From Escherichia coli (lineage in GTDB: Bacteria > Pseudomonadota > Gammaproteobacteria > Enterobacterales > Enterobacteriaceae): a DNA stretch of 64,000 nucleotides. Below the pieces are notes generated by a model, which saw only the letters and a program-made list of their open reading frames with translations, was not told the DNA's origin and did not search any database. The DNA lies in assembly GCF_003018115.1 (NCBI RefSeq), contig NZ_CP027457.1; one strand, given 5' to 3'. The translations under genes and the position numbers were made by a program. Of the stretch, positions 755-5,130 are shown in pieces (the first letter of the stretch is position 1; each line of letters opens with the position of its first letter).

Positions 755-1519
755 TCAGAAGTTAAATTTGATGGAGTAGATTATCGCATCCTGGTAAAAA
801 TCTTCGCCCAGTTTGTCATCCGCATATCGATACTGAATCCCCGTAGTAATGTGTGATGTTGCATTCCACCACAGTGCAACTGCGCCATTCAGCCCTTCTT
901 TACCGCCATTACCCGCTGCATAGGTAGCGTCACGGTCAAACTCGTACTCGTTCCAGTTGGTAAGAGTGAATTTCTCGCTGCCCAGCATAAAGTTGTAACC
1001 TGCAACCCAGCCGGCGACATAGCCGTTGTCGCCAGTGTAATAGGTTTGATCTGTATAACGCTTAGCAAAGAACGGTTTGAACCACCAACCGCTGCCGGTG
1101 AAATTGTAGCCGATACCGTACAGGAACATATCGTCGTGGAAATTCACGCGATTCGCAGAACCGTAGGTGCCATACGCATGCAAGTAGAAATTAAATCCGG
1201 TGTCACCCAGGTAAATACGGTTGGTATTTTTAAAGGTATAACGCTGCTCGCTACCTGGTTTATTATGGCGACCGTTATAGAAGTTTTCCCAGTCGAAGAA
1301 CCCGTACATTTCTCCCCAACTAAAGTTAGCGCCACCTTCAAATTCAAGATAGCCAAAATCATCTTTGTGTGATTTGGTCGACGATTTTTCGGTAGTCCGG
1401 CTGGTCCAGTCCAGATAATGCACGCCGATATCTGCAAAACCGCCTTTAAATTCTGCATGAGATACAACAGGTATCGCTAATATAGAGGAAAGTGTCAGAG
1501 TTAAAAGATGTTTTTTCAT
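755..1519 (-). CDS. yfeN: Tsx/OmpK-family nucleoside-specific outer-membrane channel homologue
   Basis: 254 aa with signal peptide ending ..VVSHA, aromatic-rich beta-barrel composition, C-terminal F; adjacent to xapA. Confidence 0.85.
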   Translation of the reverse strand: MKKHLLTLTLSSILAIPVVSHAEFKGGFADIGVHYLDWTSRTTEKSSTKSHKDDFGYLEFEGGANFSWGEMYGFFDWENFYNGRHNKPGSEQRYTFKNTNRIYLGDTGFNFYLHAYGTYGSANRVNFHDDMFLYGIGYNFTGSGWWFKPFFAKRYTDQTYYTGDNGYVAGWVAGYNFMLGSEKFTLTNWNEYEFDRDATYAAGNGGKEGLNGAVALWWNATSHITTGIQYRYADDKLGEDFYQDAIIYSIKFNF

Positions 1520-1767
1520 AGCATAATTCCCTATGCCGATCGTTATTAGTAGATTGCTTAATAAAGTGGTTTGCTAAAAACGACATATTGTTAATGCAAA
1601 GGAATTAATATCGCCAATACAGTTTTTACCGTGGATTAATAGAGGAAAGATATAAATCCATCGATATCGAATCGCTATTGAATGCGTGAGAAAAGTGTAT
1701 TGGTAAGAGCCGGGACAACCTCGCTATAAAAAGGCGTTAGATTCCACCCTACAGAAAAAGGATATAT

Positions 1768-2601
1768 ATGTCTCAGGTTCAATTTTCTCATAACATGCTG
1801 TTTTGCATAGATATTATCAAGACTTATAAACCTGATTTCACGCCACGAGTGGCCTTTATTTTAGGTTCCGGGCTCGGCGCGCTGGCCGATCAGATTGAGA
1901 ACGCTGTCGCAATTTCCTACGAAAAGCTGCCGGGCTTCCCGGTAAGTACGGTACATGGTCATGCGGGGGAGTTAGTGCTGGGCTATCTCCAGGGCGTACC
2001 GGTGGTATGTATGAAAGGTCGCGGACATTTCTACGAAGGTCGTGGAATGACCATTATGACTGACGCAATTCGTACCTTTAAGCTGCTGGGCTGTGAGCTA
2101 CTGTTCTGCACCAATGCGGCAGGCTCGCTGCGTCCGGAAGTGGGGGCAGGCAGCCTGGTCGCATTGAAAGATCATATCAACACCATGCCAGGTACGCCGA
2201 TGGTGGGACTTAACGATGATCGTTTTGGAGAGCGTTTCTTCTCACTGGCAAATGCCTACGATGCGGAATACCGCGCACTGTTACAAAAAGTGGCGAAAGA
2301 AGAGGGTTTCCCTCTGACGGAGGGCGTGTTCGTCTCGTATCCGGGGCCGAATTTCGAGACTGCGGCGGAAATTCGCATGATGCAAATTATTGGTGGGGAT
2401 GTTGTTGGTATGTCTGTGGTGCCTGAGGTTATTTCAGCTCGCCATTGCGACCTTAAAGTCGTTGCGGTCTCTGCGATTACCAATATGGCGGAAGGTTTAA
2501 GCGATGTGAAATTGTCACATGCGCAAACGCTGGCGGCTGCGGAGCTCTCTAAGCAGAACTTCATCAACCTTATTTGTGGCTTTCTGCGCAAAATTGCCTG
2601 A
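1768..2601 (+). CDS. xapA: xanthosine phosphorylase (purine nucleoside phosphorylase II)
   Basis: 277 aa, PNP family, matches XapA as recalled; followed by xapB and xapR. Confidence 0.95.
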   Translation: MSQVQFSHNMLFCIDIIKTYKPDFTPRVAFILGSGLGALADQIENAVAISYEKLPGFPVSTVHGHAGELVLGYLQGVPVVCMKGRGHFYEGRGMTIMTDAIRTFKLLGCELLFCTNAAGSLRPEVGAGSLVALKDHINTMPGTPMVGLNDDRFGERFFSLANAYDAEYRALLQKVAKEEGFPLTEGVFVSYPGPNFETAAEIRMMQIIGGDVVGMSVVPEVISARHCDLKVVAVSAITNMAEGLSDVKLSHAQTLAAAELSKQNFINLICGFLRKIA

Positions 2602-2660
2602 GAAAAACAATAAGAAACGGCCTCGCGGGTGAGGCCAAATGATGCGACAAGGAAACGATT

Positions 2661-3917
2661 ATGAGCATCGCGATGCGCTTAAAGGTAATGTCCTTTTTGC
2701 AATATTTTATCTGGGGGAGCTGGCTGGTTACCCTCGGCTCTTACATGATTAATACCCTTCATTTCACCGGCGCTAATGTTGGCATGGTTTACAGTTCCAA
2801 AGGGATCGCCGCGATTATTATGCCTGGTATAATGGGGATCATCGCAGACAAATGGCTGCGTGCAGAACGTGCATACATGCTATGTCACCTGGTGTGTGCG
2901 GGCGTACTTTTTTATGCGGCATCCGTAACTGATCCGGATATGATGTTTTGGGTGATGTTAGTCAATGCGATGGCGTTTATGCCGACTATTGCGTTATCGA
3001 ACAGCGTCTCTTATTCCTGTCTTGCCCAGGCAGGGCTTGACCCGGTGACCGCTTTTCCGCCCATTCGCGTTTTTGGTACGGTGGGGTTCATTGTCGCGAT
3101 GTGGGCAGTAAGCCTGCTGCATCTGGAATTGAGTAGTCTGCAGCTGTATATCGCGTCCGGTGCGTCATTGCTGCTGTCGGCTTATGCGCTGACTTTGCCG
3201 AAGATTCCGGTTGCGGAGAAAAAAGCGACCACATCGCTTGCCAGCAAGCTGGGTCTGGATGCCTTCGTGCTGTTTAAAAATCCACGCATGGCCATCTTTT
3301 TCCTCTTTGCCATGATGCTGGGTGCGGTACTGCAAATTACCAACGTTTTTGGTAATCCGTTCCTACATGATTTCGCCCGTAACCCGGAGTTTGCTGACAG
3401 TTTTGTGGTGAAATATCCCTCCATTTTACTGTCAGTTTCACAGATGGCAGAAGTGGGCTTTATACTGACTATCCCATTCTTTTTAAAGCGATTTGGCATT
3501 AAAACCGTCATGCTGATGAGTATGGTGGCCTGGACGCTGCGCTTTGGCTTCTTCGCCTATGGCGATCCGTCAACAACCGGATTTATTTTGCTGCTGCTGT
3601 CGATGATTGTTTATGGCTGTGCATTCGATTTCTTCAATATTTCTGGTTCGGTATTTGTCGAACAGGAAGTTGATTCCAGCATTCGTGCCAGCGCGCAGGG
3701 GCTCTTTATGACCATGGTAAATGGTGTCGGCGCATGGGTTGGCTCGATTCTGAGTGGCATGGCAGTAGATTACTTTTCGGTGGATGGCGTAAAAGACTGG
3801 CAAACTATCTGGCTGGTGTTTGCAGGATATGCTCTTTTTCTCGCAGTGATATTTTTCTTTGGGTTTAAATATAATCATGACCCTGAAAAGATAAAGCATC
3901 GAGCGGTGGCTCATTAA
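2661..3917 (+). CDS. xapB: xanthosine/nucleoside:H+ symporter (MFS, NHS family)
   Basis: 418 aa polytopic membrane protein downstream of xapA. Confidence 0.93.
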   Translation: MSIAMRLKVMSFLQYFIWGSWLVTLGSYMINTLHFTGANVGMVYSSKGIAAIIMPGIMGIIADKWLRAERAYMLCHLVCAGVLFYAASVTDPDMMFWVMLVNAMAFMPTIALSNSVSYSCLAQAGLDPVTAFPPIRVFGTVGFIVAMWAVSLLHLELSSLQLYIASGASLLLSAYALTLPKIPVAEKKATTSLASKLGLDAFVLFKNPRMAIFFLFAMMLGAVLQITNVFGNPFLHDFARNPEFADSFVVKYPSILLSVSQMAEVGFILTIPFFLKRFGIKTVMLMSMVAWTLRFGFFAYGDPSTTGFILLLLSMIVYGCAFDFFNISGSVFVEQEVDSSIRASAQGLFMTMVNGVGAWVGSILSGMAVDYFSVDGVKDWQTIWLVFAGYALFLAVIFFFGFKYNHDPEKIKHRAVAH

Positions 3918-3969
3918 AAGGATTCGCAGCTCTGCTCTTCAGAGCTGCTTTTATGATAAAGGTTAATTA

Positions 3970-4128
3970 GTGAAAGATATTTTATTTTCTTCCGGCGTTG
4001 GTTTTGGCATTGGTGCTTTGTTTACAATCGTGCGCTTGCCTATTCCTGTACCAAATGTATTACCGGGTATATTATCCATTGTGTTTATGTATGTCGGATA
4101 TCTGGTGGTGAAATACTTTATGCCATGA
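3970..4128 (+). CDS. small hydrophobic XapX-like membrane protein (52 aa, GTG start), not in the supplied ORF track
   Basis: GTG at 3970 preceded by AAAGG about 9 nt upstream; translation VKDILFSSGVGFGIGALFTIVRLPIPVPNVLPGILSIVFMYVGYLVVKYFMP; lies in the xapB-xapR gap. Confidence 0.5.
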   Translation: MKDILFSSGVGFGIGALFTIVRLPIPVPNVLPGILSIVFMYVGYLVVKYFMP

Positions 4129-4168
4129 TAATTTAATACGATGTATTTATTATATGGAGCACTTAATC

Positions 4169-5053
4169 ATGGAACGCGTATACAGAACAGATCTTAAGTT
4201 GCTCCGTTATTTTCTTGCCGTAGCGGAAGAGTTGCATTTTGGCCGCGCAGCAGCGCGTTTAAATATGTCTCAGCCTCCGCTCAGTATTCATATTAAAGAA
4301 CTGGAAAATCAACTCGGCACGCAGCTTTTTATTCGCCATTCGCGCAGCGTCGTACTGACACACGCGGGCAAAATCTTGATGGAAGAATCGCGTCGATTGC
4401 TGGTGAATGCTAATAATGTATTGGCTCGGGTTGAACAAATAGGTCGGGGAGAAGCAGGGCGGATTGAACTCGGCGTAGTGGGAACGGCAATGTGGGGACG
4501 GATGCGCCCGGTTATGCGGCGATTCCTCAGGGAAAATCCTAACGTTGACGTTCTTTTTCGCGAAAAGATGCCCGCGATGCAAATGGCCTTGCTGGAACGC
4601 CGCGAACTTGATGCCGGGATCTGGCGAATGGCGACAGAACCACCGACTGGTTTTACCAGCTTACGGTTGCATGAATCGGCGTTTCTGGTGGCGATGCCTG
4701 AAGAGCATCATCTCTCATCATTTTCCACCGTCCCGCTGGAAGCGCTACGTGACGAGTATTTTGTTACAATGCCGCCCGTTTACACTGACTGGGATTTTTT
4801 GCAGCGAGTTTGCCAGCAGGTGGGATTTTCACCGGTTGTTATTCGCGAAGTTAATGAACCGCAAACGGTACTCGCTATGGTCAGTATGGGCATTGGTATC
4901 ACATTGATAGCGGACAGCTACGCACAAATGAACTGGCCAGGTGTCATTTTCCGTCCGCTCAAACAGCGCATCCCTGCAGATTTATATATTGTTTATGAAA
5001 CACAGCAGGTGACGCCCGCGATGGTTAAGCTGTTGGCTGCATTGACACAGTAG
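4169..5053 (+). CDS. xapR: LysR-family activator of the xap operon
   Basis: Translation from MERVYRTDLKLLRYF (294 aa) has an HTH N-terminus; the ORF-track start at 4154 adds 5 codons that are probably not translated. Confidence 0.9.
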   Translation: MERVYRTDLKLLRYFLAVAEELHFGRAAARLNMSQPPLSIHIKELENQLGTQLFIRHSRSVVLTHAGKILMEESRRLLVNANNVLARVEQIGRGEAGRIELGVVGTAMWGRMRPVMRRFLRENPNVDVLFREKMPAMQMALLERRELDAGIWRMATEPPTGFTSLRLHESAFLVAMPEEHHLSSFSTVPLEALRDEYFVTMPPVYTDWDFLQRVCQQVGFSPVVIREVNEPQTVLAMVSMGIGITLIADSYAQMNWPGVIFRPLKQRIPADLYIVYETQQVTPAMVKLLAALTQ

Positions 5054-5130
5054 GTGAGGAGACAGGAATTGCCGGAAATAGTAGTCTGCTAAGTGAAGCG
5101 CATCAGGCAATTTCGCAAATCGCAGATAGC

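Follow-up and report, generated by a model that had tools for sequence, protein, structure and literature searches.

Does the 251-nt spacer between xapB and xapR of Escherichia coli encode a protein, and what would such a protein do? A sequence-only reading of the window, the 64,000-nt stretch of E. coli DNA analyzed here, had picked out in this spacer a small hydrophobic open reading frame starting at GTG, and had suggested that its product may modulate the XapB transporter. We examined whether the frame behaves as a gene, which family its product belongs to, how it is placed and possibly transcribed within the xap cluster, and which functions fit its relatives.

Coding status of the xapB-xapR spacer

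The 52-codon frame, here called xapX, was found exactly where it had been placed, with the plausible Shine-Dalgarno sequence before it (Table 1). Its translation is V/MKDILFSSGVGFGIGALFTIVRLPIPVPNVLPGILSIVFMYVGYLVVKYFMP, the first residue being V as read from GTG; with initiator methionine the product is (M)KDILFSSGVGFGIGALFTIVRLPIPVPNVLPGILSIVFMYVGYLVVKYFMP. Two shorter frames overlap it, one of 38 aa in antisense (3963-4079, minus strand) and one of 37 aa in another frame of the same strand (3998-4111).

Table 1. Features of the xap region, with positions in the window.
Feature	Position	Strand	Remarks
yfeR	upstream		annotation transfer from NZ_CP024273.1
yfeN	755..1519	-	annotation transfer from NZ_CP024273.1
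xapA, xanthosine phosphorylase	1768..2601	+	first cassette gene; annotation transfer from NZ_CP024273.1
xapB, xanthosine/H+ symporter (MFS, NHS family)	2661..3917	+	candidate XapX partner; annotation transfer from NZ_CP024273.1
Promoter-like GTGATA-18-TATAAT	3846..3875	+	10/12 matches; at xapB 3′ end; candidate internal xapX-xapR promoter; consensus scan
Terminator-like hairpin	3926..3954 (stem-loop 3926-3948)	+	directly after xapB; ends 4 nt before xapX Shine-Dalgarno
Shine-Dalgarno-like AAAGG	3958..3962	+	7 nt 5′ of xapX GTG; read from sequence
xapX CDS	3970..4128	+	GTG start, 52 sense codons, TGA stop; WP_000651752.1 is the PGAP CDS at the equivalent position
Promoter-like ATGATA-17-TATTAT	4125..4153	+	overlaps xapX stop; candidate xapR promoter; consensus scan
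xapR, LysR-type activator	4169..5053	+	start 40 nt 3′ of xapX stop; annotation transfer from NZ_CP024273.1
lysV/valYXU tRNAs, gltX	3′ of xapR		annotation transfer from NZ_CP024273.1

The length of the frame is not beyond chance. When the spacer was shuffled with dinucleotide composition kept, 577 of 5000 shuffles (11.5%) gave a forward frame of at least 52 codons, and length was therefore rejected as evidence for the gene. This frequency is one of the points in favor of reading xapX as a chance open frame in an AT-rich spacer, spread by automated annotation and not expressed as protein. So are its GC content of 38%, its omission from the curated K-12 record, and the lack of a ribosome-profiling or proteomic record in the material searched, which came from media lacking xanthosine: the supplement of the Ribo-seq study of Stringer 2021, from cultures without xanthosine, has no entry for the xap locus, and that of smORFer has nothing for xapX.

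Comparative data contradict the chance reading. We collected orthologous xapX loci from Salmonella, Chimaeribacter, Entomohabitans, an Enterobacter sp., Citrobacter enshiensis and one metagenome bin, with further loci from Pseudocitrobacter, Phytobacter, Pragia and another Escherichia. All of them have a 52-codon frame at the same place and in the same frame, so that length, frame, start position and Shine-Dalgarno sequence are kept over nine genera (Escherichia, Salmonella, Pseudocitrobacter, Entomohabitans, Phytobacter, Enterobacter sp., Citrobacter enshiensis, Chimaeribacter and Pragia). The start codon alternates between ATG and GTG among lineages, and in seven of them AAGG, AAGGAGG, GGGGG, GAAGGA or AGAGG, resembling a Shine-Dalgarno sequence, stands at the same position, 6-9 nt upstream. 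Homologues at 35-50% identity occur in distant phyla.

Substitutions point the same way. The sequence-only reading would have given up the gene had its frame been free of purifying selection across species; selection on it is instead strong. By the Nei-Gojobori method, seven lineages gave pN of 0.08-0.21 against pS of 0.25-0.92, with synonymous sites mostly saturated, and dN/dS was 0.04-0.30 where it could be computed. Variable alignment columns number 19, 12 and 46 at codon positions 1, 2 and 3 (51 columns each), a pattern that fits the xapX frame only and neither of the two overlapping ones. Within E. coli, the window's xapX differs from that of a phylogroup-B2 strain at seven sites, of which six are synonymous and one, V42I, is conservative; in K-12 MG1655 the frame is intact, with one synonymous difference from the window.

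It is this comparative evidence (length, frame, start interchange, Shine-Dalgarno sequence, dN/dS, codon-position pattern and the profile match described below, far above threshold), rather than the length of the frame, that identifies xapX as a protein-coding gene under purifying selection. We consider it almost certain that xapX is a real membrane protein gene of the XapX family. A chance frame is essentially excluded.

Family, predicted fold and annotation status

The sequence-only reading had named a XapX-domain family of small proteins at this very position, and rightly so: XapX matches the NCBIfam model TIGR03510 'XapX' at 64.2 bits (E=5.8e-18, cut-off 27.8), its residues 4-50 aligning to profile positions 2-48 of 49. 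The family takes its name from the gene lying between xapB and xapR. The E. coli protein has the traits of the family, namely about 50 residues, two hydrophobic segments, the xapB-xapR position and the signature residues G11, G15, L23-P24-x-P26-x-P28 and G43; it matches over its full length as the founding type, with no feature to set it apart, and the model is silent on function. When 1.8 billion representatives were searched with a profile, 75 clusters (50% identity) of 45-106 aa came up at E<=1e-3. Members occur in Proteobacteria, Bacillota, Actinomycetota and CPR bacteria, in varied operons.

The relation to Pfam is less direct. PGAP names the E. coli protein 'DUF1427 family protein', yet against Pfam it hits no family at E<=1 and does not reach the gathering threshold of PF07235 DUF1427 (27.1 bits). 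The PF07235 model describes a longer form of 64-88 aa, found beside amidase genes, with an N-terminal 'YVGRNE' extension and a C-terminal 'FGRP' tail. Other members bridge the two: 32 of the 37 XapX-family members that we collected match DUF1427 at E<=1 (best 1.6e-7), and short-form relatives score 16-27 bits, below the gathering score, aligning to profile positions of about 1-50 of 84. Such intermediates show that the XapX domain corresponds to the hairpin at the N-terminus of long-form DUF1427 proteins.

The glycine-rich GVGFGIGALF and the second hydrophobic segment that had been pointed out are present, at residues 9-18 and 30-50, and the protein has a GRAVY of 1.31. AlphaFold2 with the family alignment predicted helices at residues 2-20 and 30-50, joined by a 9-residue proline-rich loop (mean pLDDT 89); the length and hydrophobicity of both helices would suffice to cross a membrane. 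The first helix bears G-x-G-x-G-x-G and is followed by the conserved turn R-L-P-I-P-V-P-N. Among the 37 diverse members, G11, G15, L23, P24, P26 and P28 are invariant or nearly so and G43 is also conserved; the family pattern is G-x3-G in the first helix, LPxPxP in the turn and, for most members, a glycine-rich second helix. From this model, and from the coding-type selection on the frame, we infer that XapX is translated and forms an integral helical hairpin of the inner membrane. Among solved structures, a profile search returned only a chance match (E=9) and Foldseek against the PDB returned none.

Some family members have faint similarity to other small membrane proteins. Eleven of the 37 weakly match positions of about 26-70 of the 109-position profile PF13782 SpoVAB, a membrane protein of the spore DPA-channel operon, the matched part being a glycine-rich helix, a proline-containing turn and a second helix; the best match is 23.5 bits (E=7.1e-5), all fall below the 25-bit gathering score, and E. 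coli XapX itself has no match. The LydA holin family likewise shows sub-threshold similarity (21.5 bits); P0067, P0089 and nine other members carry such weak similarities. These could reflect remote homology or the common composition of glycine-rich transmembrane helices.

The databases thus already know xapX as a family, and whether the gene is 'unannotated', as had been supposed, depends on the source. The description holds for the ORF track supplied with the window and for the K-12 MG1655 record (NC_000913.3), which has no feature between xapR (b2405) and xapB (b2406), where the frame lies at 2522518..2522676 on the minus strand. It fails for PGAP, which calls WP_000651752.1 in essentially every E. 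coli genome with the locus, about 4,000 complete genomes. At least 1,000 contigs carry the exact sequence, which other sources label 'XapX domain'. The surmise that the protein is known by homology and functionally uncharacterized proved correct; full-text literature on XapX, DUF1427, TIGR03510 and PF07235 yielded no functional study, only one mention in a gene table and one domain census of 2005.

Family and location being catalogued, neither will surprise a specialist. What our analysis adds is the quantified selection, the K-12 annotation gap, the evidence that xapX is optional, another nucleoside setting served by a different family of transporters, and the association of long-form genes with amidase genes, the last three described below. 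The gap means that the K-12 reference record lacks a member of a textbook E. coli operon that is conserved, under selection and called by NCBI's pipeline in thousands of other strains. At 52 codons, it also falls just beyond the 50-codon window of most small-protein screens.

The xap cassette and transcription of xapX

Wherever xapX is present in the xap loci of Enterobacterales, it lies directly 3′ of xapB, even where the flanks differ, and the cassette order is shared by nine genera. The Chimaeribacter locus has metG upstream and AraC-type genes downstream, and keeps the order xapA-xapB-xapX-xapR; the four genes therefore appear to travel as one cassette. Identity between E. coli and Chimaeribacter is 79% for XapX, 78% for XapB and 63% for XapR. 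The Pfam family Nuc_H_symport was found in xapB of orthologous loci. Repeated joint horizontal transfer of xapR and xapA has been reported (PMC2395238), in agreement with a mobile cassette.

xapX is an optional and dispensable member of this cassette. At the same chromosomal site, xapA-xapB-xapR clusters without it are found in Klebsiella huaxiensis, with a xapB-xapR spacer of 100 nt (loci L053 and L054, positions 4258-4357), and in one genome of the Enterobacter cloacae complex, with a spacer of 67 nt (L055, 4258-4324); tblastn detected no trace of xapX in these spacers. The XapB proteins of the clusters are nested among xapX-bearing lineages, which implies that xapX was lost repeatedly and that XapB works without it.

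Two further loci vary the neighborhood. The cluster of Pragia fontium (L024, 4001-4950) reads xapA-xapB-xapX-deoC-lysR, where the gene for deoxyribose-phosphate aldolase, deoC, begins before the xapX stop, with an overlap of 16 nt. An uncultured Enterobacterales MAG (L047, 1702-7332) has the order nupC-yjdM-xapX-like gene-gene for a 133-aa unknown protein-deoB-deoD, nupC encoding a CNT nucleoside transporter; the XapX-like protein has 56 aa and scores 68 bits to TIGR03510, and there is no adjacent LysR gene. A second nucleoside context is thereby seen, in which transporter and phosphorylase belong to other families than XapB and XapA.

The xap region itself varies in E. coli. Among 5,426 complete genomes of the species, about 4,090 have a match to bases 1700-5100 of the window (best 99.9%), and about 1,336, roughly a quarter, have none. 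The xap-bearing genomes fall into two allele classes, at >=99% and 90-95% identity. In strain HH45 (L057, 3323-4441), yfeR is succeeded by a FlxA-like pseudogene, and the stretch of about 1.1 kb from there to lysV is unannotated, just 57 nt resembling the xapX-xapR junction. An IS1A lies inside the region in NCTC11023 and S1-CAM-01-C (NZ_LS483297.1, NZ_CP145718.1), and the region is also present on two plasmids.

Between xapB and xapX stands a terminator-like hairpin, found by consensus scan, with a 9-bp GC-rich stem (GCAGCUCUG/CAGAGCUGC), a 5-nt loop and a following UUUUAU (MFE -15.9 kcal/mol). A comparable hairpin occurs in B2 E. coli (with wobble changes), Salmonella, Enterobacter, Phytobacter, Pseudocitrobacter and Klebsiella, there also at a xapX-less locus; that of Chimaeribacter has no U-tract, and Entomohabitans has no hairpin. 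The Term-seq tables of Adams 2021 list no 3′ end at the hairpin (PMC7815308). The xapX start is about 20 nt or less from the hairpin, so that transcripts covering xapX must begin before the hairpin and pass through it. The two candidate promoters of Table 1 should be read with the fact that the promoter-like sites found were as many as expected from shuffles. With its own Shine-Dalgarno sequence and start right after the hairpin, xapX would probably yield a low-level product from read-through transcripts, or be made together with xapR, or both.

An RpoN-holoenzyme gSELEX peak has been mapped to the xapR-xapB spacer of K-12 (window 3918-4168), and with NtrC a second peak to the xapB-xapA spacer (PMC8743547). 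A sigma-54 promoter in the xapB-xapR spacer was considered and rejected; by eye, the spacing of TGGCAT...TGC misfits the -24/-12 consensus. An Rfam scan of 3700-4400 gave nothing meaningful.

Published K-12 data place a bicyclomycin-sensitive Rho termination region at 2522662 on the minus strand (BCM DirectRNA-seq, Rho score 3.14, p=4.4e-5; PMC7815308, supplementary file 2), a call made with 800-nt windows and low read counts from LB cultures. The position (about 3984 in the window) is codon 5 of xapX, and the region was classed as 'orphan' because K-12 has no annotated gene there. Such a site, with the hairpin before xapX, the xapX stop 40 nt before xapR, and a xapR transcription that is constitutive and not autoregulated (as cited in PMC7205307), suits the idea that xapX acts mainly in cis as a uORF of xapR, its translation guarding the transcript from Rho-dependent termination or setting xapR translation, and its peptide mattering little. 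Several findings speak against this. Selection on the amino acid sequence, at the dN/dS values above, goes well beyond keeping a frame open; across phyla, the peptide family is kept at loci that have no xapR; deoC and not a regulator follows xapX in Pragia, and the MAG locus has no LysR gene next to its xapX; and in Klebsiella and Enterobacter xapR is expressed with no uORF in the 67-100 nt that separate it from xapB. The windows and read counts behind the Rho call weaken it further as support. A leader peptide would be free to change in sequence, its frame always preceding the regulated gene, and xapX does not behave so. Given a peptide conserved across phyla and the place of xapX before deoC in Pragia, we consider the uORF reading highly improbable.

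Possible functions and comparison with known systems

The proposal that we favor, tentatively, is that the 52-residue XapX hairpin, an optional member of the cassette, is a non-essential accessory of nucleoside uptake and catabolism that acts most likely on XapB. The hairpin would insert in the inner membrane, where the small-residue faces of its helices may pack against the XapB permease and tune its stability or activity. We infer the membrane location, the route of expression and the partner of XapX from its predicted fold and its gene neighborhood. XapB would be the most economical partner, since its gene always directly precedes xapX and it alone, among the other cassette products, is an inner-membrane protein. 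The link to nucleosides is favored by deoC next to the Pragia gene and by nupC, deoB and deoD around that of the MAG.

The partnership with XapB taken by itself, as the sequence-only reading also had it, is possible but doubtful. The xapX-less clusters of Klebsiella huaxiensis and Enterobacter count against it, as does the terminator-like hairpin that parts xapX from xapB, there being no translational coupling of the two. Its specificity is put in question by the wider family, whose tightly coupled neighbors elsewhere are soluble enzymes (acetamidase/formamidase, FMN reductase, UPF0261/PEP-hydrolase), often with no transporter nearby; these neighbors argue for a function of the XapX family that is not specific to XapB.

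Outside Enterobacterales, short-form genes adjoin genes for FMN reductase (overlapping by 4 nt), a CsoR-like repressor, a UPF0261/PEP-hydrolase operon, ArgRS, a GHKL kinase and GAPDH. Long-form DUF1427 genes (64-88 aa, N-terminal M-x-YVYVGRNE, C-terminal 'FGRP') have a more regular setting: in 19 of 21 loci they lie on the same strand as, and within 300 nt of, a gene for an acetamidase/formamidase-like protein (FmdA_AmdA, PF03069), several pairs being separated by gaps of 11-19 nt. These long-form loci (L025, L027-L031, L033-L042, L045, L046 and L049, with the DUF1427 gene at about 3950-4220 in most) come, where paired with an amidase gene, from Burkholderiales, Alphaproteobacteria, Actinomycetota, Bacillota and Syntrophorhabdaceae. 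A full-text literature search found no paper describing the linkage. In Pandoraea, amidase-like genes lie on both sides of the long-form gene, and one of them is fused to an AraC HTH domain.

Such neighborhoods suit a generic function of the XapX/DUF1427 hairpin that is independent of XapB, either as a small oligomeric pore or facilitator for small polar solutes, self-assembled by way of the glycine-rich helices, or as a membrane tether for the adjacent soluble catabolic enzyme. In E. coli, xapX would then serve the pathway, by passage of a product or by-product or by localization of XapA, and not the permease. The wide phylogenetic spread of the family and the variety of its operons fit this, as do the close amidase linkage, the gene overlaps with FMN reductase and with Pragia deoC, the conserved G-x3-G, glycine-rich helices and invariant LPxPxP turn, and the weak, sub-threshold profile similarity to SpoVAB and a holin family. 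But the coupled enzymes have unrelated folds, so that specific enzyme binding is hard to generalize; searches of the PDB gave no sequence or fold match for XapX; and Enterobacterales strictly keep xapX right after the permease gene. We regard a generic function, the main alternative to a partnership with XapB, as rather unlikely. Broader still, XapX/DUF1427 hairpins may form a widespread class of minimal membrane components, pores or universal adaptors between an enzyme or transporter and the membrane, repeatedly recruited by catabolic operons, as in the xanthosine/nucleoside operons of Enterobacterales and the acetamidase/formamidase operons of Burkholderiales, Alphaproteobacteria, Bacillota and Actinomycetota. 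This we consider quite unlikely as stated; if true, it would make E. coli xapX, missing from the K-12 gene list, a genetically tractable entry point to the class.

The optional presence of xapX, its second nucleoside context and the linkage of long-form genes to amidase genes are handles for a first function of DUF1427/XapX. The xap system also serves as a model genetic switch (PMC7205307), in which a fourth, overlooked gene product sitting in the membrane might alter the amount of XapB or the uptake of xanthosine.

The reading of XapX as a XapB accessory follows a pattern seen among small E. coli proteins. Several small membrane proteins bind transporters in pairs such as AcrZ-AcrB, KdpF-KdpABC, MgtS-MgtA, SgrT-PtsG and CydX-CydAB. 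Like XapX, these are hydrophobic and of about 50 residues, their genes lie beside a membrane transporter gene or inside its operon, and their partners keep their basic activity without them. They differ in being mostly single transmembrane helices, whereas XapX is predicted to be a two-helix hairpin, and have no sequence relationship with it. Unlike them, XapX has relatives in operons without transporters, and its link to XapB is the adjacency of the genes.
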